From Mobula hypostoma (lineage: Eukaryota): 64,000 nucleotides of DNA. The notes beneath the pieces were generated by a model. It had not been told where the DNA came from. It did no database searches and saw nothing but the letters and a program-made list of their open reading frames with translations. The position numbers were made by a program, and so were the translations under genes. Below are positions 1,450 through 64,000 of the stretch, piece after piece (positions within the stretch are counted from its first letter, which is position 1; each line of letters starts with the position of its first letter). The stretch is taken from assembly GCF_963921235.1 (NCBI RefSeq), contig NC_086108.1:53074001-53138000 (forward strand), read 5' to 3'.

Positions 1450-2000
1450 GACACAAGTGACTGCAGATGCTAGAAGAACTCAGCAGCAGGAGCTTCATCT
1501 GAAGAAGCAAAGGATGGTTGTTTGTTTTATGGGCATGGCAGAAGGCAGAGTGGTAGGGAGAGTTTTAATACAAAGGCTGGTGGGCGATAGATGGAAACAT
1601 AAGAAAAAATGGCAGATGGAGGACAGATGGGTAAAGGTAAAGACTGAGGCTGGTATCTGATAGGTGGAACCAGATAGTGGAGGGATGATAGAGATATTAA
1701 CTCATGGGGGAAGGTTAGGAATGGTGAACCAAGGGAGAAGAAACCCAGATGGGTAGGTCTGTGAGTGATGGGCAGATGGAAACTAGTGGACAGGGATGAA
1801 TCGAGGTAAGAAGTTGTGGGCAGCGTGGGGTGGGGGGAGGTGATGATGCAGTGGCTTGGGATGGAAAAACTGGACAAAGGATGAGGGAAACTGGGTGAAC
1901 TGTTGGCAGTGGAAAGGGACCTCAAGGAGCTTTGTTACATCAACATGGAAAATTCAGTTTTCATATCATTGGCCACTTGGCTACCCAAGAGTGGAGAAGG
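1450..2000 (-). mobile_element. Penelope-like element 3' fragment (GIY-YIG tail and pyrimidine-rich UTR)
   Basis: Reverse complement of ~1925-1995 resembles LG.....MK.EFS..; mirror image of 2040-2815; ends in the CTGCAGATGC..AACTCAGCAG arm. Confidence 0.6.
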
Positions 2001-2039
2001 CTAAGGACAGAGAGGGAATGAAAGGGAAGGTCCATTCTT

Positions 2040-2815
2040 CAATTTGCATTTAATTTTAACTCCATTTCCCATTCCCACACTGATCTATCTATCCTTTGCC
2101 TTCTCTAAAGCCATGGGCGAGGCCAAAGGCAAACAAGAAGAACAGCACATTTCCACTTGGGTAGCCTGTATTTCAATAGCATGAATATTGAATTTACCAA
2201 TGTCAGGTAAACCACTTCTTACCACCCCCACCAGTCCACCAAGCGTCTCTCTCCTTTGTCCACTCGGCCCACCCCCAGCCTCTTACCTCCACTGATCCAC
2301 CTCCACCAGGATTTATCCGCCTATCACCTACATACCCACAGTATGTTACCTGAGCTTCTTCTCATTTGGTTCACGTTCCCTAACCTTCTCCCCTCTGGGC
2401 CTATCTTCTTTGACATATCACCTACCAGTCTACCCTGTCTCTACCCTTCCAGCCCCGCCTTCCTTTATCTGGCCCCACCTGCTCATTGTTTTCTTCTTTT
2501 CCTAGCTTGCCACCTATTACCAAACAGCCTCTATCTCAACACTCCCCCTCCCGCTCCCTTCTCCAATATGGCTCCAACCTCCCACCAAAGCCACCTGTCC
2601 CCACCATCTGCTTCCACTTATCACCTACCAGTCTTGGTCTCACCCCTCCCTCTTCCTCAAAAGTACTAAAATATTAGCTGTCTGTTTTCTGCACTCTCAG
2701 TCCTGTTGCAAAGTCTTGACTTGAAACACTGACTGTCCCTTTGTCTTCGCTGATGCCATTTAACCCACTGAGTTCTTTCAATAGTTTTTATTGCTTCATA
2801 TTCCAGCGTCTATTT
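2040..2815 (+). mobile_element. Penelope-like element 3' fragment
   Basis: FNSISHSHTDLSIL...EAKGKQEEQH..HLGSLYFNSMNIEFTNVR* (GIY-YIG C-terminus, frameshifted), C/T-rich UTR, degenerate hammerhead CAGTCCTGTTGC...GAAACACTGACTG at ~2698-2735. Confidence 0.75.
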
Positions 2816-3100
2816 TTATCCTAGCCTTTCCTTAGCTTAAGAAAATGAAATATCATAATAGCACTTTCACATTGTCTCACCTGATAACAACTAAACCAAT
2901 GGAAAGTGAAGGTATAACTCAAGATCCTTTTAACCTTTTAAGATCCTTGTACTTGCCCACTAAATTGTAGAGTAACAACGAGCAAACAAAGTTACAATAA
3001 CATTTACAATAATCAAAGAAAAGTGCCCAGTGTGATTCACTGAGTTGTACAGCGTGAACTCTGGCCCTTCAGCCCTACTGATCCATCCCAACCAAGTTCT

Positions 3101-3225
3101 GCCAAAGAGTTTCAGCCCGAAACATCAACTGCACTTTTTCCATAGATGCCGCCTGGCCTGCTGAGTTCCTCCAGCATTGTGTGTGTGTTGCTTGGATTTG
3201 CAACATCTGCAGGAATTCTTTTGTT
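3101..3225 (+). mobile_element. Penelope-derived terminal arm
   Basis: CCCGAAACATCAACTG...GATGCCGCCTGGCCTGCTGAGTTCCTCCAGCATT, same arm as in 57232-57421. Confidence 0.7.
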
Positions 3226-3640
3226 TGTGGCCCATATACCTCCAAACTTTTCCTTGTGATTAGGATACAGAAATACAATTTCAAATTAATGTAAAAAAAA
3301 CTGAATCCTAAGGTTTAAAATTATAATGATATGGATTATTAAGGGATAGATTTTTCTAGTTTATTCCTTTGTCTTTCAAACAGATATAATTGTAGGCATT
3401 AATTTGCCCATCATTTCCCCCCTTATCAGATTGCAACCTGAAACACTTACTATTCCTTTGCCTCTCCAGATGATCCTCAACGAGTTGATTACAATAAAAG
3501 AAGGGTTTATCTTTGCCATTATTCAATAAGATCTTCCTGGAATGTGTGCATGTGTGCTGTGCTGCCTCTCACAGTCATCTGACTTCCTGATGTTCGTTGC
3601 TAGAACTTTTTTATGATGAATGGTCACTTGGGCTGTGGCC

Positions 3641-6600
3641 ATGAAGGAGCTGGGAAACACACACAAAATGCTGGAGGGACTCAACGAGTCAGGCAGCATC
3701 TTTGGAGGGGAACAGACAGTCAACATTTCGGGCCGAGGCCCTTCACTGGGATTGGAAAGGGAGGGGCAGAAGCCAGAATAAGAAGATGGGGACAGGGTAA
3801 GGAGTACAAGCTGGTGGTTGATAGGTGAAACCAGGTGAGCAGGAAGGTGGGTGGGCGGAGGAGGGGGAATGAATTAAGAAACTGTGAGGGGATAGGTGGA
3901 AAAAGGGAAGGGCTGAAGAAGGTGCAATCTAATAGGAGAGGACAGGAGACCATAGAAGAAAGGAAAGGAGTGGAACCAAAAGGAGGTGATGGCAGGTGAG
4001 GAGAACAGAAGGGGTAAGAGGATAACCAAAATGGAGAATGAGAGAAGGGCGGAAGGGGGAGTATTTACCGGAATTAGAAAAATCGATGTTCATGCCGTGA
4101 GATCGGAGGCTACCCCAGACGGAACATGAGGTATCGGACAAAACATTTTTGTGCTGATTTCTTTCCTGGGCCCTACATTGGGCACTAAATAAGGAGGAGT
4201 TTGCAAAATGTCCTGACTTGGTGTGATTTCAAGGTGCGTCAGAAGAGGCAGAAGGCACATAAAGATTGATCGGTCAGTGTCCTCAGTGCCAGCTGAGCAG
4301 CTGTGCAAGGAGCCCTCTGCAGGCATCGCTCAGAGGTCATTGAGCAAACTCAGCATAAATAGGAAAAGGTACTCAAGGGAACTTTGTACACTGCAACTGT
4401 TCCTAGTTGAAGGAATTGTTCCAGGGCAGACCGACTTCTGCAGCTGCTCAGGGAATTCATCACAGGCAGGTGAAGGAAACTCAATGGATCCGTTTTTTAC
4501 AGAAAACACTAACGTGGATAATTGTAACTTTTTATCATTCCCCAGCATCTGGTTGGATTTGTCATAAATTAAAAGGAAAATTTGGGTAAAAGAGTTATAG
4601 ATGTATAAAAATTCTTCTACTTAAGAGGGTTAATTTTTGGAACTCTTATGATAACTGATGTTGTATAATTTCAACAGATTTTATGCAGTAAGAATTGTTG
4701 AATTTATAAATTTATTAAGTGATTCAACTTTAATTTCTCTGTTTTTCTAGTCTTAATGAAATGCTTTGTTTAACACAGGACAAAGAAAGCATTGACATTC
4801 CAGAAGCGGACTTCTTGCACAGAACACCAACTGAGGTCTCAAATCGCAAGCATCCTGAACGGAGAGCAACGATAGGCTATTAACTACATGAGACATCACA
4901 GCTACCATCAACCATACAAATCATTTAGTTACTTTATGGTCCTATTCAAAGATAAGTAACAAGATCCCATTCTTGCACTGACCAAAGCTTCCCTCTCAAA
5001 GCAATGCCTAAAACAAATAATCTGGTTATCAATTTCTTGCTGTTTGCAAGACCAAGCTATGCTCAAGTTGGCTTATGTACTGTGCATATACTGTCAGTTC
5101 AAGGGGCTCTAAAGCTTTTTGCATTGCCTGGGGTTGCAAAATATATTTTTTTTAAAGATGAATTCATTCTTTTTTCCCCTTATTCATAGTTTCTGAAATT
5201 TCTTTCTTGCTCTTTTTTTTTGTTTTCTGGCTTTATTGTTTTCTTTCCTTTTGCTCTGATAGCCTGGCTTGCTTTTCTTCCTTTCTCATTGTCACTCTTT
5301 CACTTTTAGTCAATCACTGCCGATGAAGGATACACAGTGAGAGTGTCACGAGCCTTTCATTTCTCTTTATGGATATATATTCCCGATTTTTTTTTGTTTT
5401 GATTCAGTTTAAAAGCACTGTATTCATTTTTGTTGGAAAATCTCTTTTTCTTTGATAGATTTATCTTGTTCTAAAAACATGATGCTACAATCTATCACTG
5501 CATCAATTACATGTCACACCATTGTGAGGAAAATGACACAAGGTTTATAGAGATAGAATACACATCTCGGATACCGGTGAAGTTATGACTGAAATTATAT
5601 GTTCAAAACTGGATACTGAAGAATAATTACAAACTGTAATCTAATCGAGAGGTTGGGTGGTTCATAACAATTATAAATAGTTGGCTGAGAATAGTGATAT
5701 TGGACAATCAACAGTGGTGTGATACTCTATTCAAAATTTTAGGTAGTTTATCTCTATATACTACCATATGAATTTGTTTGAAATAAAATCTCTCTGTGCA
5801 ATTAAATATTTATTTCAAACAAATTGAAATAGCAAGTTTTTAATTTATGATTGATAAGAAGTGAGCTATTCCTCAGTTTGAATTCAGAAGGATGCTCTTT
5901 CTGCATTTGTGTCACATTTCCATTCTCTACAAGTAATCCTTGTATCCTGTCTGAAGCAGGCTGTCTTATAAATGTCAAATCACTGGGCCTCTGTGATGCT
6001 TGTACATTGTGACAACAGATTGGGGCAACTCTGATCACTGCAAGCCGCAGGAAGATCACCCTACATGTCCTCCTGGTTGCTCACTAATTGATTATCTAGA
6101 TGGGGTGGTATTTATTAGGTACCACTCCCCCATCCCTATTTTCTCTGAATGACTTGTAAGGCCATTTAAGAATGATTTTAGTTCCCTGAAAGACAAGACT
6201 TTATTTCCAGAATTTTCTGGTTCAGATCCTCAAGACAACTTTAGTGGGATGAGAACTGATATTCTCTCAAATATTACTCCTCATCCCTAGAATACTCGAC
6301 ATTCTATAAACTCCCACTCTAATGATATCCCAGAAATTCAAGAAGAAGATAATCCTTCATCCAAAAAAATAATGTGAATTTTCAAAGTTAATCTTATATT
6401 CATTTGTCTTATTTTTTAAACAGGAACCAAGTTCGGTGGAACAGCATCCATCAGTTTCACTTTAGCATTTATAAAATAACGTTATTCCATGTGTATTCAG
6501 TTGCTAATGAATCAGGCTAAGTAACTTTACTTTGGTTTTATGACCAGGGCTGCACTGAGAAGAGAGTGATGATTTCAAACTGCTTAGAATTTATCCTTGA

Positions 6601-14135: not shown

Positions 14136-14224
14136 TACAGTAGTACACATTGTAGGGATAAAACAGATGTTTATGTCTGGTTTGCTTTAGAGACTCCCTA
14201 CAATAAATTTCCAACTTCATAATA

Positions 14225-14808
14225 ACACACACAAAATGCTTAAGGGACTCAGCAAGTCAGGCAGCATGTATGGAGGGGGAGCAGTTGACATCTCAGGCTG
14301 AGACCCATCATCAAGACTGAATAGGAAGGGGGTAGATTCCAGTATAAGAAAGTGGGGAAGGGGGATAGGTGGGGAGGGGATGGTTGAGATAGCTGTAAGA
14401 GTTCAGGGGCTGAAAAAGAAAGAATTGAATAGAAGAAGAAAGGAGGAGGAGAAATGTAGGGAGGTCTTTCATTGATTCTATCATGGTTATTGGATTTTCT
14501 GAGCATACCCTCAAGGAAATGAATCTCAGGGTTATATGTGGTGATATATATGTAATTTGATAATAAATTTACTTTGAACTCTGGGCAGATGAGAAGAGGT
14601 GAGAGGGTAACTAGAATGAGGAATGGAAAAAGAGAGATGGAGGGAGGGGAGAGGAATTACCAGGTTAGAGAAAATGATGGAATGGAGAAATAGAATATCT
14701 AACCTCCTGTAATTTCTCTCCCTCCCTCCTTCTCTCTACTTGCTGAGTTCCTCCAGCATTTTATGTGTGTTGATCAAGATATCCAGCATCTGCAAAGTCT
14801 CTTGTGTC
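14225..14808. mobile_element. Penelope-derived element with inverted arms, carrying a short Rex1-type 3' tail insert (~14480-14582)
   Basis: ACACACACAAAATGC..ACTCAGCAAGT vs ACTTGCTGAGTTCCTCCAGCATTTTATGTGTGT; degenerate minus-strand hammerhead 14282-14319; insert ends AATAAATTTACTTTGAACT. Confidence 0.7.
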
Positions 14809-15114
14809 CAGCATCACAGTGGGTAATGCACTTTGCTCTATGTTGCCTTTACAAGTGTATTGGGAGAAGTAAGATATACAAAGATAGGTTATTACACAGT
14901 AGTTTGAGTGAACTGCTCTGAAACGATACAGAAATTCCATCAGCATTGACAGTTCTTGTTATATCCTTCACTACTTCTTTAATCCTGGACTAAAGAACAT
15001 TACAACTATTCTGCCAACTTCTTTATTAATGATATTATGACAATGTTGATCTAGAATGTGCTAATAAACCAGAATTCAAACCAAAGTGCCAAAAATAATT
15101 CAAGTGATGTATTT

Positions 15115-16420: not shown

Positions 16421-17424
16421 AGTATTTAAAGCCCAGTGCATTAATTTAAAGTGAAACCATTAAAAGTCAAGTGGACTAATTGGCTTGTATTCATTTCTCA
16501 TCTAAGTGTTACAGAATGTGCATCATGGAATGAGGATGAAGAAGTGAAACTACATGTTTGAAATGTGAAGATGTACTGGAAGGAGTTGGTGGCTATGCAA
16601 GTGCTTCAAGACCACAAGGTATGTTGTCGTATTTGCAATGAAGAGAGCAAAGAAAGAGGTGATTATCTCTGGAATGGAAACAAAATATGTGGAAGTATGA
16701 TGTTTCAGTTGTATCTGGAAGGATATAATGGATGGAAGAAAAATATTGAGAATAATTGTGGTAAAACTATCTTTAAAAGCTATTGGAAAAAACACCTTTG
16801 ATGAAGAGCTATATTCATCCTTCCAGTTCCTCTGAGCTTGCTTTTTCCCCATTGAATCAGAATCTCACTGGTAGTGTCCACATTGAGCATTTCAGCCAAT
16901 TCTGCCCAGAATGGTTCATCACCCTCAGGATATTTAATATCTTTGCAAAATATATTTTAAAATGATATATTTCTAATTTACGATTATGTGATTTATATCT
17001 AAGGTAAAGGTAAAGATTTCAGAGACTTTGCCTACAACAGGAACACTACAACTGTTCCCCAATTTTCCACTTTCGGCGTAAGGTCTATGGTTACTGAGTA
17101 TTATTTACAAACTGGCAGCTTATCATCTGAACCAATTAGCTGTTTTTCATAAAAGCAGAAATTCTGGAAATACTCAGAGGTTCAGGTAGCACTGTGGAGA
17201 GAAAAACTGAAGTAGTGTTTCCAATAAATGACCTTTCTTTAGGCCCTACATCCACATTCAACAAATCTTTCATTGGCCACTTTTCATGTTTTGTTGGCCG
17301 TTGTTTCATGTGAATGCAATAAGTCATTTAGGTTCTAAACTCTCAGGTTTTCTTGTCGGCACTATTGATTAATGCATTCTTTTAAAACCTCCCTGCACTG
17401 AGAACAAAACATATCTTAAAATTA

Positions 17425-17611
17425 AAACAACAGGAATTCTGCAGATGCTGGAAATTCAAGCAACACACATAAAAGTTGCTGGTGAACACAGCAGGCCAGG
17501 CAGCATCTCTAGGAAGAGACCCGAAGGGTCTCGGCCTGAAACGTCGACTGCACCTCTTCCTAGAGATGCTGCCTGGCCTGCTGCGTTCACCAGCAACTTT
17601 TATGTGTGTTG
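17425..17611. mobile_element. 187-bp Penelope-derived fold-back element with 15-bp TSD
   Basis: ~58-bp near-perfect inverted arms 17460-17517/17555-17612; direct repeat CATATCTTAAAATTA at 17410-17424 and 17612-17626; loop contains GAAGGGTCTCGGCCTGAAACGTCGACTG. Confidence 0.9.
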
Positions 17612-18673
17612 CATATCTTAAAATTATCCTGCCTGCTATCAGCAGGTGTATTGTTCTATTGAACAAATGTTGTGAGCCTGTTCAGCAGTGACACCTAGGT
17701 TCTTAAGGGCAACTTGGAGTTCCTAATGTCCTTCTGAAAATGTGAGGAGCAAAAGTAATTAATCAGTCAACTGAATTGGAACTTACTTCATCAAAGATAT
17801 CATTATGAAACTACATTTATAGAGTTTGTTTCTGATTGACCATGATGAAGCTGTGAAACTGTTTTGTTTCATCAGTTTTGAAGGAAGCTCTTTGGAGATC
17901 GAAAGATGAGCATTTCAGATTTTTCCAAAAAGCAGTAATCTAAATGACAATATGAAATAAGAACCCCTCTTGATTCTTTCCCTTCCTTTTCTTGGGGTGC
18001 TAAACTGATAGCGCAAAACAGTGCAAATTAGCCAAATCTGTTCTCTTTAAACATAAATCCGTCTCCCATTTATCATTTGGAAAATACACCACAAAAATTT
18101 CGATCTAATTTTTTTTGGCTTACTCGGTTTCTGCTGTGTTGAATTTATAACAGTCGATACTGACCAGTGTGTTTCACTCAGTTGACCCTGTGACTGACTG
18201 TTGCAAAAGTTTGACACTGCAGTCCATAGACACCAAAGTGTTTCAAATGCACTTGGGATGGGTTCTATCTCTCAAAGAAAGACGGATATTTAATCAGCAA
18301 TGACAATGATGGATTGGTCCTTATTTTGTGAAAGTACTTCTGTTAGAGTCTCATGAGCCATTCTTGCATTGTTTTGAGTCTACGGATTTTGTGAAGCTAG
18401 ATTAGGCAAATAAAGCACAGGAAATGATATGCTGTCTTTATTGCTTAGTTCTGGATTGTTTGTAGCCTGCTAATCATTGTTGACTCAGTATTGTCGGCTT
18501 GAATAACTAACCAAGTTCCAGGATTGAACACATGTAAAATTCTTATATTGCAGGGAATGTCCAAGGGGCTAATCAGTTATTTTCCAGAGAACACGCATAA
18601 TTAGACAAGATGTTTTAGGCAGACTGTGTCCAAACCTTATTCCTCTGGATAGTTATTCTTTGGATTTTTTTTT

Positions 18674-23422: not shown

Positions 23423-25689
23423 AGTTTTGATAGGAGATCGATTTTTACAGCATTCTCCTTTTACTTCCTGATTTTGAGGAATAGCAAATGTTGATTGGAA
23501 GTGAAAGAACTGCATGAGCAACTGATGCTCTGAGATTAGATCACTCAGCATAGAAATGGGAAGTTGAAACAATAGATGTAGCAAGAGAGCTTTCAGGGAA
23601 GAGGGGCAAAAATAAAACAATTGGTTATTTAATAACACCAGCTCACTGATCCAAAAATGAAATAGGAAAATCTACAAATCACATTGACCACAGAATTCTA
23701 CATTGCAAAGTATATAATACCTTGTGTAGATAAAAATGTAAGTAATATTGTTGGCATTTTAATACTTTGGATGAACTCTTTAGCAGCAAATGACTGACAG
23801 AACAAAAATTATTTTCTTGTTGATGAGATAGAAGAAAATGATATCTTCTTGTAACTTGTACAGGAAGGATCAATATAATTTTAATAAAGTTATTCTTAAT
23901 CTAAATCTGCTAGTCTCATTAACACAAGATGCTGGAAATCCAAAGCAACATACACAATAAATGTGTTGCTGCTAATTAGTCTGCTTTGTATTGCTAACAC
24001 TTTTATTGCATCTGATTTATAGCAATTGAAGTTGGTTTGTTTTATAAAAATGAGGAAAGAAGTGTTTTGTTTGTAATTCCTTCCATCATCTCTTGAAAAT
24101 GAAACCATTTTTCTTGGAAGTATCATTTCCACAATCATTGTGACATTTTTTTTAACACTCTTTAGACCGCACACCTCAATTGCTTTCTTTATTTGTGAGC
24201 TTAAACGCCAAATAGAAGCAAACTGTTCAAACTTATAGGGCATCACAAGCAAACTTGAATCTATTCTTGCTTACCTCACAGAGTTGACACTGACATTCCA
24301 ACAGATATTAGTGGAAGGGTAAAAAGAATCAATGCAGATTACCTCTGGTTCTTCCTAGACTACAGGGACTCAAATCAGTTTTGAGGTGCTATCAGTGACT
24401 GAAATAGCCCAGTAAGTACTCTCTTCTTATCAATACAAATGGTGTCTTTACCCCTCGAGGAAAACTTTTGGGGCAGCAGATAGATATCGATTATTAGCAG
24501 ACACACAAAAAGATTCAGGGATTTTAAAATTTAACTCACTTAAGTAGTTTTTTCTCACCTCATGCAAGATAGATGATGATAATACCTAATGGGAACAGCA
24601 TCTATATTAATTAGGATTATTCTTTCTGTGTCTGCTCAAATGCTCCATGTGGCAAAATTTTGATGAAATTATCATTTTCTTTTGGTCCTTACAAGCTCAT
24701 AAATTAGTTCTGAAAGTAGTCAATTAATGGATTATTATTTCATTATGTACTAAAAATGGAGACTAAAAAGTAATTATTCAAAAAGATCAGTTTGAATACA
24801 TTTTAAATAATCCTTTCTTGGTTGAGAACGGTGGGAAATAATGAACTTTAAATAGACATTTTAATTACTGAAAAAGCACGGACGTCTTTTTTTTTGAAAA
24901 TGTTATGGCATTTTGAAACAGATTAATGGTTCAGTGTGAGCACAGTCGCCCTGCAGTGTAGTGACTGGAGTATTCAGGTAATCTCAGGCTCTGGGGCTCA
25001 GCAATGGCTGTAAAATATAATTATTCCATTGATCCTTCCTGTACTCGCAATAAGATATCTCTTGAAAGCAGGTGAATGTGTTTTTGTACTCAGTTGCATT
25101 CTTGTCAAGATGTGTTTGATCACTCTACTATTACAATGCTTGGCCCACACCAATAAACGTTTTATTCATCTAGTCCTAGTGAGATGCAATTTGGCAATTG
25201 CTTATGGACCATTACTTCTACTTAATTTTGAAATTTTCAGTACATCAAAGATTTGGATTAGTACATTGTTCCTTTTCTCCATTTGTTCAGGCCAAGACTT
25301 TTCTTCCCTGCCATTAAAACAATCACTCCTTCCTCTGTTCCTCCTCTCTTCATGTTGCTGTTCCTCCATTCCCTCGGTTGTGATTTGCCAGAGGAATGAA
25401 ACACGGTACTAATGTGAATAATAACTCCCGTGATATTTTTACTTTATTCTGAATCCTTAAATACTGCTGTTGAGAGAAATTGCGAAAAAAAAGTTGAAGA
25501 ATATGGATTGTAATTGGTCAGTGACAGGTCAGCCATTATATATTCCCAGGTCATCTGTGTATTTAATCTCTACCTAATCTGCAACTTTTGAATAAATGTT
25601 GTAAGGTGCTACGGTGCCAGTGCACAGGGAGAATTGATTCAAGAATCAATCGCATTGGTTATTGTGTTCAATCCATACTCTTGTTACAG

Positions 25690-28545
25690 AACAAAAACAG
25701 AAAATGCTAGAAAGTTCAGCAGATCAGGCTGCGTCTGTGGAAGAAGAAATGTTTCAGGTCTGGGATCCTTCCAGGAAATTGAAAAAAGCAAGAAAGCAGT
25801 TAGTCTGAGTAGCAGAGGAGTTGGAGAAGGGCAATGGAGAGCAAAGGGACTTTCACTGACAGGGTGAAATAGTGTGGTTATCCAGGTCAGTTAAACTGCA
25901 TGGTCAGCAGGACTATACAAATGAAAGAATAAGGTAAGAAAAAGTAAATATGCCCTATTCTAATACAAACAGTAAGAAAGAGCAAGTTATCTAAAGTTGG
26001 AGAATTGCGCCTTGTAACATGTTAAGCAGGAGGCGAGATGTTCCTTGAATTTGTGTTGGGCCTCATTGTAACAGCGAAGAGAGGTACAGATGGAGTGGCC
26101 AAAGTGGGACTGGGATGGTGAATTTAAGTAGTAGGCGACTGGAAGCTTACGGTCACTCCTGCAGGTTGTACACAGGTATTATGCAAACTATCACCCAATT
26201 CTTGTTTGGTTTCTCCTTTGTTGAGGAAGCCCCAGTGTGAATACCAAATGTAGTACACTAGATTAGAATAAGTGCAAGTGCAAGTTTCTCCTTGCCTGGA
26301 AGACACTGTTTGGGCCCCTGAATGCTGGGAAATGAAGAGGTGAAAGGGCAAGTATTGAAATATCTGCAGTTTATTTGTATAAGGACCAGAGGACAAGGAA
26401 GGGAAGCAAACCAAGGAGTCATGAAGGGGGCGATCCCTTTGAAATGCTGGAAGTGACGGGGAGGGGACTACGTGTCTAGTGGTGGAACTTTGCTGGACCT
26501 GACAGAAATAGCAAAGAATGATTATGGATGCTGGTTGGATGGAAGGTAAGGTCCACTTGAAGTCAGAGTCATAGAGCAATACAGCATAGAAACAGGCCCT
26601 TCTGACCAAATGGTCCAAGCCCTTCACAGCATCCTCCCTGCTAGTCCAAGAGGCCTGCATTTGGCCCATAACCTGCCGCCCCCAAGCCTCTTCCCTTCCA
26701 TATACCTATCCCAACACCTCTGAGATGTTGCAATTGTACCCACCTCAGTCACTTCCTCATTTCAGATACTCACTCGGCCCTGTGTAAAGAAATTGTGTCT
26801 CAGGTCTCTTTTAAATTTCTCCCCTCTTGACTTGTCTGTGCCCTCTAGTTTTCAACTCCACAGCCAGGGGGAAAAGACTATGACCATCTACTACCTTATC
26901 TGTGCCCCTTTTCATTTTATAAATTTCTGTGAGGTTACCCCTCATCCTCTTGCACTCCAGGAATAAAGACCCATTGTGGCCAAACTCTCCTTACAACTCA
27001 GGCCCTCAAGTCCAACCACACTCTCATAAATCCCTTCTGCACTCTCTCCACATTGACAATGTCTTTCCTATAACAGGATGAATAATACTATACACAATAC
27101 TCCAGGTGAGGCCTCACCAATAACTGCAACGTAATATCCTCCAAATAATGCCTTGATGCCTTGACTGACAGAAGCCACCATGCTAAATACCTTCTTCACC
27201 ACCCTGTCTGCATGCACAGCCAATTGCGCTCTCTTACTCCCAGGTCACTCTGTCCCACGACACCCGTCAGTGCCCTGCCATTCACTGTATGAGCTCTACC
27301 CTGGTTTGACTATCCAAAATGCAACACCTCACACTATCGAAATTGAAAGCCGTTTGCCATTCCTCAGCCCATCTCCCTAACCAGTCAAGATCTCTTTGCA
27401 ATTTATTGCAACCTGCTCCTCCATCAACAAGACCCTCTAATTTAGTAACATCAGCAAACTTGCTGTAGTACCATGTACATTCATATGCAAAACCTCTGTT
27501 TTTCATTACTTATGTAAATAGAGTACTCAACACTGACCCCTGTGGCACCCTAATAGTCACAGGCCTCCAGAGAATCAGCTTTGAACCACCAACTCTGTTT
27601 CCTATTTGAGCCAATTCTGAATCCACCTTGCAAGCTCCCACAAATCCCATGTGACCTATTCGTCCCGATCAGCTTGCCATCCATTACCTTGTCAAAGGAC
27701 TTACTAAGGTCCATGTAGATAACATCTATTGCCTTATCTTTCACCTATCCCCTTAGTATCTCTTCGAAAACCTCCAATGGATTTATCAGACATGGCCTCC
27801 CACACACAGCATGCTATTTCTGACCAGCCTCCTCTTGTACTGTCCAGGAGGACAGGACTAAGGGCAGAGGAACAGGAAATAAGAGAGATGCAGTTAAGGA
27901 CTCTGTTCCCTATGGTATAAGGGAAGCCACGGTTAAAAAAGATAGAAAGAAAGAAAAGGTTCGGCAGCACTTGTCTCAACATTAAAACAAATGTAAAATG
28001 AAACAGAGAAATTAAGATAATGGAAGGGTTGGAGGAAGTATAATCAAGGGAACCATGAATTCTGTGGACTTGTAGGATGTTGGTTTTTCCTCTCTTAATA
28101 GAGATGGAGAGATCCATAAAGGCAAAAGTCACCGACAGTCCAAATTAAAGTGAGAGAAGGTTGCAAGTTTGCTCAAAGGTGATTTTGTTTGTTCTGCACG
28201 AATGCGGAAAGCAGCACAAATATGGTCATTATGTACCAGAGAAAGAGTTGGGGAGTGCACCCTGAGCAGGATTGAGACAAAGATTTTTCAGATATGGGTG
28301 GAAGTGTAGGAGGAATGTATGTCTATGGTGAATATGAACTAGTTAGGGCCAGAAAATTATAAACTATTAGTGGTGGAGGATGTCTGAAGTATGAGTGGGA
28401 AGGGACAGAACCAGAGAGAAAGAATGAAACCAAAGTCAAAAGATACTAGTTCAGTGGGGCAATAACAGGACAAAGCTCTGCCTGGACAGTTCTCCTTGTG
28501 GATCTTGGACACGTGTTAGAAACAGACTATGTGGTGCAGGATCCT
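25690..28545 (-). mobile_element. Decayed Penelope-like element (RT C-terminus, GIY-YIG, arm) interrupted by a CR1
   Basis: TCTYSNLVYYIWYSHWGFLNKGETKQELGD (GIY-YIG) in ORF 26124-26669; FMDLSISI...GSLDYTSSNP (RT thumb) in ORF 27734-28132; terminal arm at ~25695-25770. Confidence 0.75.
26563..27810 (-). mobile_element. CR1 LINE fragment nested in Penelope
   Basis: IDVIYMDLSKSFDKV; SKFADVTKLEG..LQRDLD; CAGAGTCATAGAG tail. Confidence 0.88.
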
Positions 28546-30294
28546 TCATAAATATTCTTATGGTCTCTCCAAGTGAGATTGTTGTTCTTTCGTAACTTCA
28601 GTGAACTTAGTATGTTAGCTGTGTTTGGCATCGAAACTCATTTTGCATTGGAATCCATTTAGCTACCACATTGAGAAGACTTGTGTCCCGGCAGCTTGAT
28701 GTTCCACAGGCTTGCTTTCCTTGACAACCTTTGGTGCAGTGCGATCAAAAGCCGAGAAATAAGTTATTTAAGGTAGTATTTTAGTCTCACATTTGAGGAT
28801 ACCCTTCCAGCATGCCTCGTACACCTCACAAGCAATCGCTGTCCCATTTCAGCTCTCTAAATGTTGAATGTTGTACCATTTTTGCAGCTTCTTGATCTCA
28901 ATGGTCTCAAAGTAATGAAAATGCCTATTCCTAATCGTCTGTTCTTTCCACAATTTACATGCTTTGAAATCGGAAGTTTGGCATCACTTAACCAGTTCTG
29001 CTTCATTCAATTCACCTTTTCTTTTATTGCATTCATCCTTAGTAGTATACTTCATACGAAGTCATAACAGCCCTCCTTAATAATTAAAACAATATCAGTA
29101 ACTTGTCCTCCAAGCCAGTTACAGTAATTATGCCAGGTGTGGATATTACATGAAGTACTTTCAAATATCAAAATCCTGTCAGAGGCTTGATTTTTGCTGA
29201 AGTACTGTTAATAACAAACCTGTATTGCTAAAAGCTAGATCATAGTAAATAAAAGAATAATGCTGATTCAGACATAAATCACATTAATGGGATTTATACC
29301 ATCAAGTGGAAGAAGTGTGGTGTTAGTAATGTCCTTGTAAAATATTTAACAAATCACCTCTGTTCTCCTGATTGTTTTCCTGATCCCCATTTCATTCCCA
29401 AAACGACACACCTTCATTATAGATTTTCATTTTCAGTTCTATTAGTAACCCATTGGTGAATATATTAGTCCCGTGCTTTGTGTATTTTGCCTGACAGAAC
29501 TGTAAGCCCGAAATGGACAGCATCAGAGACTAAAGGTACTTGCATCACTCCAATAATTTGTCATAAAACCTTTAGGCACATTTTATAACCTGGGGATACA
29601 AGTTATAATACAATTTATGCAGTTTTATCACAGGTGGCAAAAAATATGATTTATTCATCTTTTATTTTTGTGGTCATCACAGGTGTAAAATAAAGCTTCT
29701 CCAATTCTAAACCTCATTGTTCTCAAACCATTGTGTTTGTTTTAAACTAGGAGAGAATTTTAGACAGGCAGAGTGGGTAAGAGGGGTTCAGGCACCATGA
29801 AGGAGAAAATTTTAGGCACTGTCCTTGGTTAATTTTTCGGGTGTTTTTTAAAAATATTTATGTGAGGCATGACTCTGAGAGATAAATAAGACTAGATCAT
29901 TCTTGTCCTTGGAATCGGGATCATGGGAAAAGGTATGGTATGTTTTCACTGAATATAGATAAAGTAAATACTGTAGCCTCTTCTGTGTTGAAGCTGGAGA
30001 AATTTCCACCATCTTGCAATTGACAATCCAGTCTTTTGTAAGGCTGAAGCTCCCTATTCAGAGAGAGTTAACTACATTTCATTCTCCTTTGCCAGAGACC
30101 AGCACGCAATGAGAACATATGGTTTTCTAGTATTAGGAACTTTCCCACTGTGCCAAGTATCATTGATAGCATGTCTATGGCTCTGTGGCAGCCATATTTT
30201 GACTATGCTCTACATGTGAATTGAAGGGATTTCCACCACTTTAACATGTTTGTGTGTGACCACAGGTCACAGCTCATACAAAGTACGTCTGTAC

Positions 30295-35259: not shown

Positions 35260-36665
35260 TGTCATGGACCGGATCGGGGTCCCTTTAAATTTAGCTTGTT
35301 TATGTTACGGTCTGGACCGTTGATTCCCTGTTTTCCCGTGTCCCTCGACTTTGGTGATTAGAGGCAATTAACACTCGGCTGAACCGGTAGTTTATAGTCT
35401 CCGGCTTTCAGCCGTTCGGGTCGGGAGCGTCTGCAAAGTCACGGCGTGCCAATGTCATCTGGCCGGAGCAAGCCTTGTCTCCGCCCGAAGCGAGTGTCGG
35501 TAATTCGCCTTTCCTCAACGGAGCAACCCGTTCAGTTACCTCGCCGAAGCGAGCCTGCAAAGTTTCCTCATCAAGGTGGGTCCGTCGGTTAACCCGCCGG
35601 AGAGAATCAAGAGCCACTGTCTACTGTTCCCGGGCCGAGTCGAGAGCTCGGCACTACCCGGAGGTTCCAAGCACCACGTCCTGGCTCCAGCGGCATCCAA
35701 GTACCACGTCCACGTCCTGGCTTCGGCAGCATCCAAGTACCACGTCCACGTCCTGGCTCCAGTGGCGTCCAAGTACCACGTCACGTCCTAGCCCTGCGGG
35801 CGTTCAAGTACCATGTCAAGTCCTGGCCCTGGCGGCGTTCAAGTACCATGTCAAGTCCTGTCCCTGGAGGCGTTCAAGTACCACGTCAAGTCCTGGCCCT
35901 GGCAGCTTCCCAGTTCTGAGTCTAGTCCTGGCCCTGGCGGTCTGTGATTCCTGTTCTTCCCCCTTGTCTGAATCCCTTCCCTGCCCCTCTCGCCTCTAGC
36001 CCTCATCTGCAACCCCCGCCTGCACTTCGGTCTAGTTCCATCACCGGAGCTAGATAGGTACTGTCTGGTGTTCATTCGTGTTGGTCTTGTCTTGTCTGGT
36101 CCTCGCCTCCATGGGGGTGAGTCTGGCCGTCTTGCCATTGCCCCGCGGGGAGTCGTGTCTTGTCTTGTCTTCTCCTTGCCTCCGTGGGGTAAGTCAGGCC
36201 ATCTTGCCGTTGCCCCGCGGCGGGTCATGAGTCCTGGCCCTATGTCCTGTACCCAAGGAGGGGTCCCGGCTCTGTGTATGTGTCCATGGTTCCATGTACC
36301 TGCTCTCCCAAGACCAAGGCTCTGTGTTCCCATGTTCCTCCTCTCCCTAGCCCATGTCATGTCCTTGCCTGGTTCTGGGGTCCGAGCCCGAGGCAAGACC
36401 CAGATACTGGGTCCTTGCCCAGTCTCTGGCTCAGAGTCCATACCCTAGCCTCTTCATGTCTCCTCTAGTTCTGGGAGCCGATTCCGAGTCCAAGCCCAGA
36501 CCCTTGGTCCCAGCCTAGTCGTGGTCCTGAGTCCTTGTCCAATTCGCTACTCCTGCTCCTGCCTTGCTCTGCTGGTATCGAACAATAAACTAAATCTAAG
36601 TAACCTCACAAGATGTGTCTTGCATTTGGGTCCACCCTTGCTCCCTAGGCCCCGCCATTGTGACA
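35260..36665 (+). mobile_element. Solo LTR (Gypsy-type), 1406 bp, copy B
   Basis: TGTCA...TGACA, perfect TSD CTTCC (35255-35259/36666-36670), TTTATA near 35391, AATAAA near 36584, TGCATTTGGGTCC. Confidence 0.9.
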
Positions 36666-55320: not shown

Positions 55321-57231
55321 ACAATATGCTTTAATATTCCTTGTAACTCCACTCGAATCACAGCCACTAATCACATACTCTATGATAACTGGTTGTCTTC
55401 CTTTACTTGAATTTTAAACAGGAGGCATTAGGTTATCCTCATTTAATGTCCACACGCATTTAAGCACGCAAAATAACAGACGTACAGAATCAGGTTTACA
55501 TATGTACAACACAGGGAATTTAAAATCAATGTATGTGTGAGCATACACATATGCAAAAAGTACATATTCACTTGGTGCACATGTATATCTGAGCATAAAT
55601 ATGAACAGGCTTATGTAAGTACATTGCACTCAATATCTTTGGGGATAGAATAACTAATGGATGTTTACTGTCTACACTCATAATGATAGAAGAAAAATAA
55701 ACTTGAATATATCAGAGACAATAAGTACACCACTGAAGGAAGCGCAGCAATCAATTCAGCACAAATAACAAAGAGATAAATGGCCTGTTAATCTGTTTAT
55801 TTCAATGTTGTCGTTGATGGATGAAAGAAGTATTGTCCTCTAGGTAATGTACCAGAGGGAAGTGAGTTTAAATATGTCCAATCATTTCAAATACCTCTAG
55901 TAATCCAAGGGCTATAGATAACTGAAACAACCTGGATACTTATGAACCAGCATTACTTATCAAACACTACTTTTTTTAACAGAAAGCTGACACATGAGCC
56001 ATTAAATATGCAAACATTTTGCAGTAAGTCAAAAAATGAATTAGCTGATCTCAATAATGTTAGCATTCTTTAAATCATCTGACTGGGTCCAAATGCTTTC
56101 TAATTGCTAAACAGGCTGTTTTCTGTACGTTTTCTTGATTTCTTTTCAAGTCATTATTGAATTAAATGTTTTCCTGTCATTTTGCAAAGGCAGTCTATTT
56201 TTATAAAGAAAATATCAAAACAGAAGTTAGAATATTCTAACTAAAGTACCCCTTGTTCCATTGGTGATTGAGAAAAGATTGAGTCTTGTCTCATTACCTC
56301 CATAATCTCTCAATTCCTTGTTTTTGAGCTGTAAAATGTTGATGTATAAATAACTCTCAGCTGGATTCTCTGACCACAGACTGGAACGTATTTGCATCTT
56401 ATCCATTTTCTTAGGTGAACAAGATACCTTAATAATGAATTGTAAAAACTCCTACAGGTCTTATGGAAACCTATTCATCACATGAAATTTAGGAGCAGAA
56501 AATTACTGCACTGGGTGTTGCTCTTCTTGCCATTTTACTAAAAACCTTACAGAGGACTATAGTTTGTCACTGTTGTGGTTAGAATGAATGGCTTTCTTTG
56601 TTATTTTTCATATATACGTTTATTTCTTCCGGTTTGAATTTTCCTTCAAGTTTAATCTTCAGATCAAATTTCCATCCCATTCGCTCCTTCAACCACCCCT
56701 TGATGAAGGCCTTTGCCTGAATGGAGCTTCAAGGTTGTTCACAGTCTCAGTATCGACATAATGTGAATGTGCTGGATGACTGCAGGAGCACCATGGCTTA
56801 ACATAATTGTCTCTTCGCCCAACGTCCCGAAACATTTTAGAGGATACAAACAGAAAATATGGCAATATTCAGCAGCTCAGGCCACATCTGTGGAAGAGAA
56901 ACAGAATTAATACTTCAGGTCAAAGACCATGGTCAGAACCAGGAAGAGACAAAAAGTTCATTAACCTGCAGGGTAGGTGGGGAAGTGGAGTGGAGAGCAG
57001 ATGTCTCTGATAGGGCCTCTAACAATTCTTACAAATGGTCTGCAATATTAAATGTTTTTTTTCCCACAGACATCTGACCTAATGAATACTTACAGCATTT
57101 TCTGTTTTTATTTTAGATTTTTAAACATCCGTAGTTTTTATATAGGCATTCTTCGAGGGATCATTGCATAATAATAAATTGAGGGAACGCTAATTAATGT
57201 TTTCTTTGACAGCTCAGCAATGTTTAAGCTT

Positions 57232-57421
57232 CACACACAAAGTGCTGGAGGAACTCAGCAGGCCAGGCAGCACCTTTGGAAAAGGTCCTGATGAAGGGTC
57301 TCAGGCCAAAACGTCAACTGTTTACTCTTCTCCATAGATGCTGCCTGGCCTGCTGAATTCCTCCAGCATTTTATGTGTGTTACTTTGGATTTCCAGCATC
57401 TGCAGATCTTCTCATGTTTGG
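57232..57421 (+). mobile_element. 190-bp Penelope-derived fold-back element with 13-bp TSD
   Basis: Inverted arms 57233-57272/57339-57380; AATGTTTAAGCTT (57219-57231) / AATGTTCAAGCTT (57422-57434). Confidence 0.88.
57285..57320 (+). ncRNA. Degenerate minimal type I hammerhead ribozyme motif
   Basis: GTC-CTGATGA-AGGGTCTCAGGCC-AAAA-CGTC-AACTG; CUGAUGA box intact, GAAA box mutated, so probably inactive. Confidence 0.6.
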
Positions 57422-58779
57422 AATGTTCAAGCTTGTTGTTGTGCCACTGGAGTCTGACCTGGTTAAGAATTTACCACAGGTAAGAATTGTATCTCATGCT
57501 TGCTTGAGTACTGTGGTTCAATGTAACTCCTGATATTTGCTTAAATATAGATTAATGTTGTTTGTTTCATTTTGGAATTGAAAGATCTGAAATCCATTAC
57601 TCTATAAACCAAACCTGATGAGAGAGAAATCATTACAATTGTTTTTATCCAGGAAATGTAAATTGGCAGTCTATTCCAGAGACACATGGTGGGAAAGCTA
57701 CTATAGAACTGTGCCTGAAATGAGTAATAATCTAGTTGGTGATGTGGCAAAAGGGCAGAAGTGTGCTAGAGGTTTGTATGGGGAGAGTCAGCAGGATTGG
57801 GAAGGACTCAAAAATGCTTTTTTTTGGTCCTGAGGTAATGCATAGCATAACAATCCATGTTATTGACTTCTTTGCTGAGACAATATTTGTCAGAGGTTCA
57901 AAAAGTCATTGCTCAACCAGGTCTGAACTTAGATAAAACCACTGACATAATGAAAGATGGAACTGAACTGAGAGTATGTGAATAAGCAAAAAGAACTTAT
58001 TTATTGAACAAAACATATTACATAGAAGTACAGAAGTACAATATTTTTACAAAAGGACAGGTATTATTATACATTAATACATCAGAGAATTACTTACGTT
58101 TAACAATATTTGAATGACTTGTTTTCATATTAATTTGCAACTAAACTTTCCATTTTCACTATTATTTCTGGATTGTCAACAGTGCTTCAATAATTTCTTC
58201 TTTGATTTTCCTCCCCTTCCCAAACCCAAAGATTTATATTCCATTCAAAATATATTATTGAAAGTAAGACCTTCATGCCATCTATAATCTCTGTCTTTAG
58301 ATAACTTGATTTAATGGCACTCAACATCTTCCTGCTCATTTCAATTTCTATTAAAGATCAAATATTTATTTGTTTGTGAAAGGGCATACCCTTAGCTCTT
58401 TCCCTGGGTTGACCACACAAATTGATTTACATATGGGACAGTGTGAAAGTAATCTGGCAATGGTAGATTCTATAGTGACCATGGCCACTCATTGCAGAGC
58501 TCCAGTTAGTGAAGTGAGCCAAATGCTCAGATTGTGGCTGAATCAGTAAGAATCTGATGAGGTAATGGAGAACTATAGAGTTCTCCAGTTAGTCTGAGGA
58601 CCCCATACACTTCTGGTCACTGAAGCAGAAGGAGAGCATCAAGGCCCAGAAAGGATGTAGGGAAGAATCGCAAGTTTGAAGCTCAGTACGATATGGAATG
58701 TTTTAGAGCTACCTGTGATAGTAAGAAGCTTAGAAAAGTTAAACCTCGTCAGTGCTGCATGAAAAATAAACAAGAAGGA

Positions 58780-60905: not shown

Positions 60906-61303
60906 TGCTGAGTAATTCTAGCACTTACTTGTTATATTTCAGAATTCCAACACCTACAAGATTTTGGCCTGTAAAAGTCCAGGACACACTGGCCCTGTGA
61001 ATTTTCAGTCTAACTTTTACATATTTGTCTTTCTTTAAATACAGGGATATTATTGAATTATAAATTGAATGCAACAGAAGACATCCAGAGTATACATGTC
61101 AGCAAGTACGTGATTAAACAATTAATGCTTTTAGTGAAATGATACTAATAAAATGATTCTCCCTGAAAAATAAAGGTTACATTTTCCTCTTAGATCTTGA
61201 TGGAGCGCTGTTGCCCAATTTTGAGTTAAATTTCCAGCTGTTAATATTTTTCCATTATTTTTAATCAAACAATTTGTGGTAGTTCTGACAGGTTTCTAGT
61301 AGA

Positions 61304-64000
61304 AAGGTGTATATATTTCAATGCTAGGAGTATTGCGGGGAAGGCGGATGAGTTGAGGGCATGGATTGACACGTGGAATTATGATGTTGTAGCAATTAGT
61401 GAAACTTGGCTACAGGAGGGGCAGGACTGGCAGCTTAATATTCCAGGGTTCCGATGTTTCAGATGTAATCGAGGCAGAGGAATGAAAGGTGGGGGAGTAG
61501 CATTGCTTGTTAGGGAAAATATTACAGCAGTGCTCAGGCAGGACAGATTAGAGGGCTTGTCTACTGAGTCCTTATGGGTGGAGCTGAGAAACAGGAAAGG
61601 TATGGCCACATTAGTGGGATTGTATTACAGACCACCCAATAGTCAACAAGACTTGGAAGAGCAAATCTGCAGAGAGATAGCAGGCAACTGCAGGAAACAT
61701 AAAGTTGTGGTGGTAGGGGATTTTAATTTTCCATACATTGATTGGGACTCTCATACTGTTAGGGGTCTAGATGGTTTAGAGTTTGTAAAATGTGTTCAGG
61801 AAAGTTTTCTAAATCAATATATAGAGGGACCAACTAGAGGGGATGCAATATTGGATCTCCTGTTAGGAAGCGAATTAGGGCAAGTGACGGAAGTGTGTGT
61901 AGGGGAGCACTTTGGTTCCAGTGATCATAACACCATTAGTTTCAACTTGATCATGGACAAGGATAGATCTGGTCCTAGGGTTGAGGTTCTGAACTGGAAG
62001 AAGGCCAAATTTGAAGAAATGAGAAAGGATCTAAAAAGTGTGGATTGGGACAGGTTGTTCTCTGGCAAAGATGTGATTGGTAGGTGGGAAGCCTTCAAAG
62101 GGGAAATTTTGAGAGTGCAGAGTTTGTATGTTCCTGTCAGGATTAAAGGCAAATTGAATAGGAATAAGGAACCTTGGTTCTCAAGGGATATTGCAACTCT
62201 GATAAAGAAGAAGAGGGAATTGTATGAAATGTATAGGAAAAAGGGGGTAAATCAGGTGCTTGAGGAGTATAAGAAGTGCAAGAAAATACTTAAGAAAGAA
62301 ATCAGGAGGGCTAAAAGAAGACATGAGGTTGCCTTGGCAGTCAAAGTGAAGGAGAATCCAAAGAGCTTTTACAAGTATATTAAGAGCAAAAGGATTGTAA
62401 GGGATAAAATTGGTCCTCTTGAAGATCAGAGTGGTCGGCTTTGTGCGGAACCAAAGGAAATGGGGGAGATCTTAAATAGGTTTTTTGCGTCTGTATTTAC
62501 TAAGGAAGCTGGCATGAAATCTATGGAATTGAGGGAATCAAGTAGTGAGACCATGGAAACTGTACAGATTGAAAAGGAGGAGGTGCTTGCTGTCTTGAGG
62601 AAAATTAAAGTGGATAAATCCCCGGGACCTGACAGAGTGTTCCCTCGGACCTTGAAGGAGACTAGTGTTGAAATTGCGGGGGCGCTGGCAGAAATATTTT
62701 AAATGTCGCTGTCTACGGGTGAAGTGCCGGAGGATTGGAGAGTGGCTCATGTTGTTCCGTTGTTTAAAAAAGGATCGAAAAGTAATCCGGGAAATTATAG
62801 GCCGGTGAGTTTAACGTCAGTAGTAGGTAAGTTATTGGAGGGAGTACTAAGAGACAGAATCTACAAGCATTTGGATAGACAGGGGCTTATTAGGGAGAGT
62901 CAACATGGCTTTGTGCATGGTAGGTCATGTTTGACCAATCTGTTGGAGTTTTTCGAGGAGGTTACCAGGAAAGTGGATGAAGGGAAGGCAGTGGATATTG
63001 TCTACATGGACTTCAGTAAGGCCTTTGACAAGGTCCCGCATGAGAGGTTAGTTAGGAAAATTCAGTCGCTAGGTACACATGGAAAGGTGGTAAATTGGAT
63101 TAGACATTGGCTCGTTGGAAGAAGCCAGAGAGTGGTGGTAGAGAATTGCTTCTCTGAGTGGAGGCCTGTGACTAGTGGTGTGCCACAGGGATCAGTGCTG
63201 GGTCCATTGTTATTTGTCATCTATATCAATGATCTGGATGATAATGTGGTAAATTGGATCAGCAAGTTTGCTGATGATACAAAGATTGGAGGTTTTGTAG
63301 ACAGTGAGGAAGGTTTACAGAGCCTGCAGAGGGACTTGGACCAGCTGGAAAAATGGGCTGAAAAATGGCAGATGGAGTTTAATACTGACAAGTGTGAGGT
63401 ATTGCACGTTGGAAGGACAAACCAACGTAGAACATACAGGGTTAATGGTAAGGCACTGAGGAGTGCAGTGGAACAGAGGGATCTGGGAATACAGATACAA
63501 AATTCCCTAAAAGTGTCGTCACAGGTAGATAGGGTCGTAAAGAGAGCTTTTGGTACATTGGCCTTTATTAATCGAAGTATTGAGTATAAGAGCTGGAATG
63601 TTATGATGAGGTTGTATAAGGCATTGGTGAGGCCGAATCTGGAGTATTGTGTTCAGTTTTGGTCACCAAATTACAGGAAGGATATCAATAAGGTTGAAAG
63701 AGTGCAGAGAAGGTTTACAAGGATGTTGCCGGGACTTGAGAAACTCAGTTACAGAGAAAGGTTGAATAGGTTAGGACTTTATTCCCTAGAGTGTAGAAGA
63801 ATGAGGGGAGATTTGATAGAGGTATATAAAATTATGATGGGTATAGATAGAGTGAATGCAAGCAGGCTCTTTCCACTGAGGCAAGGGGAGAAAAAAACCA
63901 GAGGACATGGGTTAAGGGTGAGGGGGGAAAAGTTTAAAGGGAACATTAGGGGGGGCTTCTTCACACAGAGAGTGGTGGGAGTATGGAATGAGCTGCCAGA
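61304..64000 (+). mobile_element. Young CR1 LINE ORF2 (APE endonuclease plus reverse transcriptase), one nonsense codon, runs off window
   Basis: YFNARSI, AISETWL, YYRPPNS, VGDFNFP, SDHN; TAA at 62700-62702; same frame then open to 64000 with NYRPVSLTS, DFSKAFD, GVPQGSVLGP, FADDTK. Confidence 0.97.

Follow-up and report, generated by a model that had tools for sequence, protein, structure and literature searches.

What is the fold-back insertion at positions 57219..57434 of the Mobula hypostoma DNA analysed here (64,000 nt of contig NC_086108.1, referred to below as the window), does it contain a hammerhead ribozyme, and can that ribozyme cut? Our analysis indicates that the locus is very probably a single dead insertion of an endonuclease-bearing Penelope-like element (PLE), Neptune-type by its linker, and its long copy carries the relic of a minimal type I hammerhead. 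The 216-base insert consists of two 5'-truncated copies of the element 3' end arranged head to head, of which only the right one bears a tail. It is flanked by a 13-bp target-site duplication (TSD) with one mismatch (57219-57231 and 57422-57434), as an earlier reading of the letters alone (the sequence-only reading) had described, and the CTGATGA box noted in that reading was confirmed at 57288-57294, between the arms of the fold-back. The inverted arms (57232-57284 and 57327-57379) are 53 nt each and complementary at 47 of 53 positions, and the hairpin strand folds at -96.6 kcal/mol (z -9.7), a stability equalled by none of 200 shuffles. An ATG within the hammerhead core runs into a stop within about 25 codons.

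The sequence-only reading had combined this copy with those at 17523 (+), 3716 (-), 14282 (-), 3101 (+) and 2698 (+) into a hammerhead consensus. All five proved to be copies of the same family, and a majority rule over the six, with CG restored wherever CG, TG and CA alternate, reproduced the proposed 38-nt consensus letter for letter; a plain majority without this CpG rule departs from it at two CpG-decay positions. As independent support, raw contigs matched to a 1.2-kb stretch at 80% likeness read ...CCTTTCCA before 57285, and stem I therefore begins CAGTC. The same contigs carry C at 57305 in 92% of the family depth, the G found there being private to the copy at 57219..57434; this letter comparison covers the best 40 of 67 rows, with 57303, 57308 and 57316 outside those 40. 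When interpreted as a hammerhead of type I, the consensus provides a 5-bp stem I, CUGAUGA, an unpaired A, a 4-bp stem II, GAAA, C-G and GUC, and it holds all 11 core letters and the GUC triplet despite four CpGs. Stem I (CAGTC/GACTG) and the loop-less ACGT stem III were as predicted, and the proposed structure needs only minor amendment: CUGAUGA has an unpaired A after it, and stem II comprises three G-C pairs and an additional U.G pair closing a 4-nt loop (U-A in two of nine aligned copies). Helix III is the palindrome A-C-G-U at 57311-57314, without a loop and palindromic at 15.2/16.2. When the 11 core letters were fixed, 9 of 200,000 shuffles matched the 5-bp stem I, the 4-bp stem II, the 15.2/16.2 palindrome and a non-G at position 17.

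The identification as a minimal PLE hammerhead agrees with the published consensus of Cervera and De la Pena (PMC4209133, Fig. S3), who define this ribozyme by an extra base, G10.1-C11.1 and a palindromic 15.2/16.2, and in whose figure many rows end C-G-U-C, including Acropora Neptune, Takifugu Xena and Xenopus. According to the same paper, minimal hammerheads lie in the pseudo-long terminal repeats (pLTRs) of PLEs and also occur, dispersed and in their thousands, in the genomes of fish, coelacanth and frog. A hammerhead pattern scan of viral and prokaryote genome contigs returned no match, and a looser pattern found five loci in metagenome contigs, none similar to the window by blastn and three of them one sequence. 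The same core was found immediately 5' of a PLE reverse transcriptase (RT) open reading frame (ORF) in the unrelated metagenome contig L004. Two further metagenome observations were made: L001 400-620 (also L002 and L005), an unrelated sequence, combines the core of a minimal hammerhead with a partial copy in inverted orientation about 50 nt upstream of it, a fold-back resembling in style those of the window but in another organism, and L003 549-575 (-) holds a minimal hammerhead with a 4-bp stem II and a GUU triplet. The ORF near the latter is presumably a PLE N-terminus.

Within the window, the association of the hammerhead family with a Penelope ORF is supported by the order of remnants on the minus strand, which runs from RT through linker and endonuclease to a 3' untranslated region (UTR) and a decayed unit at 25779-25688. 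The RT remnants (28575-27854, -) gave a best tblastn match of E 7e-8 to a Chiloscyllium protein, and the linker/endonuclease remnant (26546-26148, -) matched a Hypanus sabinus protein at E 2e-12 and a Rhincodon protein at 2e-13. About 1.3 kb of other sequence, which may be from a CR1 long interspersed nuclear element (LINE), separates the RT remnants from the linker; the last ORF codons also precede the units at 2698 and 3754. A phmmer search with the endonuclease remnant returned five proteins, three of which are shark or ray PLE pieces, and one relative, P0038, carries RVT_1 and GIY-YIG domains. A word-based protein search with the same remnant gave no match among 75 candidates, an Atlas search gave no usable match, and a profile of 36 distant PLE proteins matched the RT remnants only. 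The nearest proteins, P0126 and P0127, contain a Cys-rich linker (CX2-5CxxC), to which the window remnant 26398-26309 aligns with one Cys lost; a Cys linker between RT and endonuclease marks Neptune and Nematis (Craig et al. 2021, PMC8557442).

The copy at 57219..57434 cannot cut. It keeps ten of the 11 core letters and has G12 changed to A at 57308, G12 being the general base of the hammerhead (review, PMC6155905); its closing stem I pair is broken at 57316, and the computed probabilities of the ribozyme pairs in the fold-back RNA are at most 0.02. The statement that no single copy is intact held for all nine aligned copies, none of which has all 11 core letters. Differences from the consensus fall at 17 of 48 CpG positions and at 23 of 167 others, a comparison that is partly circular as the CpG sites were defined from the same copies, and three of the four CpGs in the motif lie at core or closing-pair positions. 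Of the 53 nt of each fold-back arm, three are private changes, and none of these is compensatory; since these changes restore no pairing, neither ribozyme nor hairpin is visibly under selection at this locus.

The sequence-only reading had counted at least six relics in the window, and the number turned out to be higher. A profile built on 13 window copies, with four further places and two inverted arms outside the training set, gave 19 matches at E<1e-3 among 23 rows, 12 of which reach the core start, the best match in 20 shuffled windows having E 0.053. The main copies are listed in Table 1. The tail is on exactly one end in all three younger head-to-head pairs, the TSDs of the fold-backs measure 13, 15 and 8 bp, and none of the seven tandem arrays of the window holds a head-to-tail tandem of the hammerhead unit. 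At the junction of the younger fold-back (17512-17534), stem II sequence forms a local 7-bp hairpin, which is what one would expect if a short self-primed step had preceded a template jump.

Table 1 Parts of the fold-back insertion and other copies of the family, in window coordinates.
Feature	Position	Strand	Remarks
Left TSD	57219..57231		13 bp, direct repeat
Short arm	57232..57284	-	Inverted, 5'-truncated second copy of the element 3' end; no tail, no ribozyme core
Stem I 5'-strand remnant	57285..57287	+	First two letters removed by the inversion junction 57284/57285
CUGAUGA core box	57288..57295	+	With the unpaired extra A typical of minimal PLE hammerheads
Stem II and loop	57296..57307	+	4 bp in consensus, 4-nt loop
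Second core box, helix III, GUC triplet	57308..57315	+	Helix III loop-less and palindromic (ACGU); predicted cut after 57315
Stem I 3' strand	57316..57320	+	Position 1.1 is A (CpG decay), closing pair broken
Sense arm	57327..57379	+	pLTR sequence 3' of the ribozyme
One-sided tail	57380..57421	+	About 38-42 nt
Right TSD	57422..57434		13 bp
Older fold-back	56834..57117		Same family; 8-bp candidate TSD; 100 bp upstream of 57219..57434
Younger fold-back	17410..17626		From a sister subfamily; TSD of 15 bp without mismatch; arms of 59 nt, 98% complementary; left end bears the tail; truncation of the core at G8; junction hairpin of 7 bp
Probable longer head-to-head insertion	14224..14810		Minus arm with core and 3' UTR; no TSD found
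Plus arm of 14224..14810	14738-14810	+	Bears the tail (right side)
3' fragment	3653..4145	-	Last PLE ORF codons, pyrimidine-rich 3' UTR, decayed ribozyme, arm
Solo 3' unit	3093..3226	+	Decayed core, tail
Old head-to-head pair	1451..2800		3' UTR, decayed core at 2698
ORF C-terminus in 1451..2800	2025-2210	+	
Decayed PLE	25688..28575	-	Almost half of full length; RT, linker and endonuclease, 3' UTR, decayed ribozyme unit

The layout of these insertions is one already known from PLEs, in which an inverted truncated copy, a one-sided tail of 30-40 bp and junction palindromes are typical (PMC8557442, PMC3846280). In PAc, a Poseidon element of the anole (Frangieh et al. 2024, PMC11167929), the target is AT-rich DNA, both strands of which the protein nicks and extends, two RT start sites bound the tail, the template used in vitro is mainly uncleaved RNA, and the ribozyme cuts only with protein and is dispensable for insertion in vitro. 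Following this published work, an RT-endonuclease protein would have nicked AT-rich DNA with a 13-nt stagger, both target ends would have primed reverse transcription at two start sites bounding the tail, and both complementary DNAs would have stopped early and then been joined; self-priming is a published alternative route to a fold-back. Because the long arm runs across the scissile bond, its template would have been uncleaved or religated. After insertion, the copy would have decayed neutrally, fastest at CpGs. As for the ribozyme itself, an active ancestor would cut only as two copies sharing the 4-bp ACGU helix, because there is no loop III. The dimer model is published (PMC4209133), and in vitro activity of such ribozymes is low even as dimers (review, PMC6765202); on this literature, an active ancestor of the family would have cleaved as a dimer, in a reaction that was probably weak and protein-assisted. 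The fold-back arms cannot supply the ribozyme pair, because their strands are opposite and the core is absent from the short arm.

Several results weigh against this reading and are given here together. No Rfam hammerhead family matched at E values up to 5 (window) or 10 (local), the searches giving 21 and 7 weak matches only. The stem covariation that the sequence-only reading had put forward as a check failed to appear, the nine decayed window copies, few and closely related, having 76.9% of cells paired vs 77.5% when shuffled and a covariation score of 0.296 vs 0.304; the true stem register is 77% paired vs 14-46% in slid registers, and an absence of covariation would be expected of a single family whose copies decay neutrally. 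On the protein side, two of the five phmmer matches are unrelated repeat proteins, a Pfam search gave no name to the endonuclease remnant of the window, and the clade would be Neptune-type by linker motif rather than by tree. The ORF link rests on old, decayed copies, since the window contains no full-length element or tandem pair. Finally, an active double hammerhead was computed at -19.9 kcal/mol, compared with -21.0 kcal/mol for a pair of monomers that form stems I and II, and with -33.7 kcal/mol for an inactive duplex. The energy model omits core tertiary contacts, and since energies alone do not favour the active dimer, the active form would need such contacts or protein.

It is conceivable, albeit doubtful, that the fold-backs are two-template chimeras, with a long arm from uncleaved RNA and a short arm from the ribozyme 3' product trimmed by a few bases at joining. 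In the window, the three short arms begin 11, 8 and about 35 nt downstream of the predicted cut; no arm extends across it, but none of the three begins exactly at it either. If the chimera reading were true, tens of thousands of copies would document, in the genome, in vivo cleavage by a loop-less hammerhead, and the question of whether PLE ribozymes act during retrotransposition would be settled.

Among the alternatives to a once-active PLE ribozyme, the one that deserves most attention, although we hold it to be the less probable explanation, is that the hammerhead-shaped motif no longer cleaves even in the master element and persists as a protein-binding or folding signal or as a pLTR hitch-hiker. 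It differs from the preferred reading only in the activity of the ancestor. All 12 copies that reach the core start continue through the predicted cut site, the computed energies do not favour the active dimer, ribozyme mutants of PAc left in vitro insertion unaffected with no RNA-seq reads reported as ending at the site (PMC11167929), and Naiads spread without hammerhead ribozymes (PMC8557442). However, a consensus that retains 11 of 11 core letters and GUC despite its four CpGs speaks for a functional ancestor, and related minimal hammerheads do cleave, if weakly, as dimers or with protein (PMC4209133, PMC11167929, PMC6765202).

The remaining alternatives concern the nature of the repeat. 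Long terminal inverted arms within a TSD, in five such structures in 64 kb, resemble an independently mobile miniature element (a miniature inverted-repeat transposable element or a non-autonomous fold-back family), but the copies differ from one another in junction, length of the arms, side of the tail and length of the TSD (13, 15 and 8), solo arms exist, some arms continue into the ORF and the raw contigs show many different joints (over 1,100 rows), which makes an independent element very unlikely. We consider equally improbable a retrozyme of the non-LTR type (one that lacks long terminal repeats), in which tandem ribozyme repeats of 150-1000 nt move through circular RNA: the hammerhead is of type I, the copy at 57219..57434 lacks coding capacity and such retrozymes, whose origin is placed in PLE pLTRs, are described for one chondrichthyan (bioRxiv 10.64898/2026.07.22.740005), yet the tandem arrays of the window are devoid of the unit (0/7), the copies are dispersed or head-to-head, and several continue into PLE 3' UTR and ORF. 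That the hairpin is a domesticated host RNA, such as a microRNA-like precursor or a regulatory duplex, is exceedingly improbable; it is very stable, the insertion is apparently common to a related organism and there are weak Rfam microRNA-precursor matches, but these score far below gathering (40 vs 120 bits), six arm mismatches are uncompensated, and any long inverted repeat scores alike. The microRNA-precursor matches were accordingly rejected as generic inverted-repeat scores. A tRNA short interspersed nuclear element was also rejected, the window containing no tRNA-derived head.

The dead PLE insertion belongs to a very abundant family. In a run from the same organism, 125,202 of 27,606,599 contigs fit the 1.2-kb stretch, which together with the 19 window matches bears out the very high genomic load proposed earlier, and in two related organisms the counts were 118,575 of 22,155,592 and 96,432 of 20,913,867. 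Summed contig depth, which is not a copy number, was about 7-20 in the unique flanks, 5.9e5 in the core and 4-5e6 in the arms, and is read only as a family abundance several orders of magnitude above single copy. In a run guessed to be RNA, 14,314 of 1,736,423 contigs belong to the family, a count that says nothing on the copy at 57219..57434. For this copy, contigs of organism B break where those of organism A do (57091-57258 and 57395-57950), a pattern that falls below the 31-letter bridging rule and suggests that the insertion is shared by the two organisms. Its flanks differ by about 3% between organisms A and B (27/930 letters), and each arm is about 6% from the family consensus.

The setting of the insertion has an exon-like appearance. 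A pyrimidine tract (57190-57212) has CAG as its last letters, up to 57212, and on the other side of the insertion (57435-57485) lies a strong donor, at 57479/57480, which a crude matrix ranks in the top 7 of both strands; the empty site would amount to an exon of 64 nt whose ATG falls within the TSD, the mismatch of the TSD being synonymous, at a third position. The lack of a protein match, a mediocre acceptor score and a 7-nt insertion in organism C speak against a live coding exon. Elsewhere in the window, a fairly young LINE has an open frame of 485 codons at 61245-62702 (+) that encodes an apurinic endonuclease domain (PF03372, E 1e-18), and an inverted LINE piece follows at 63221-63652. 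A GC-rich repeat is present twice, on opposite strands (12900-14004 and 35391-36550); it contains tandem units of 72 bp and 35 bp, and each of its strands has open frames. At 32428-32826, LINE RT sequence includes inverted arms of 100 nt (76%), probably the mark of a 5' inversion.

The motif, the dimer model, the layout of the fold-back and the massive spread through genomes have already been published, and the insertion at 57219..57434 alone matters little, being a dead copy with a described motif and a described insertion pattern. In the literature on elasmobranch, chondrichthyan and shark Penelope ribozymes, outside subscription journals and repeat libraries, no description of this Penelope family was found; a preprint on retrozymes in one chondrichthyan (bioRxiv 10.64898/2026.07.22.740005) may cover a relative. 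Cartilaginous fishes are thinly covered in the searchable hammerhead papers, and this family apparently ranks with the most numerous ribozyme motifs of a vertebrate genome. Its very many insertion ends allow a statistical test of whether PLE hammerheads cleave the RNA from which genomic copies are made.

Compared with known systems, the motif is closest to the minimal PLE hammerheads of PMC4209133, with which it shares the type I layout, CUGANGA with one extra base, a G-C pair opening stem II, GAAA followed directly by the palindromic C-G and UH, a U-rich 5' flank and a place in the PLE 3' repeat. As in that set, the motifs are mainly single ones of truncated elements, with some opposite-strand pairs 100-700 bp apart. 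The 4-bp stem II with U.G is at the short end of the published range, and the portions of Table S1 and Fig. S3 examined include no cartilaginous fish. Published loads are in the thousands per genome (about 4,000 in Latimeria and 9,000 in Xenopus), whereas the load here seems at least tenfold higher, on a measure that is only rough. The non-LTR retrozymes of Li et al. (bioRxiv 10.64898/2026.07.22.740005) are likewise type I and derived from PLE pLTRs; unlike their tandem units with intact motifs, the copies here have no intact core (0/9) and no tandem in the window. The inverted PLE insertions described by Arkhipova et al. (2013, PMC3846280) and in PMC8557442 resemble the fold-back in their inverted 5'-truncated copy beside a direct one, TSD, 30-40-bp tail at one end and junction palindrome like that at 17512-17534. 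Here, however, both arms are below 140 nt, the shortest form, and the TSDs of 13-15 bp exceed the 8-10 bp of rotifer PLEs. PAc (PMC11167929) is similar in that the ribozyme lies shortly upstream of two RT start sites, the target is AT-rich and the template in PAc is uncleaved; it belongs to the Penelope/Poseidon clade with an ORF starting in the ribozyme, whereas the nearest proteins of the present family carry the Neptune/Nematis Cys linker.

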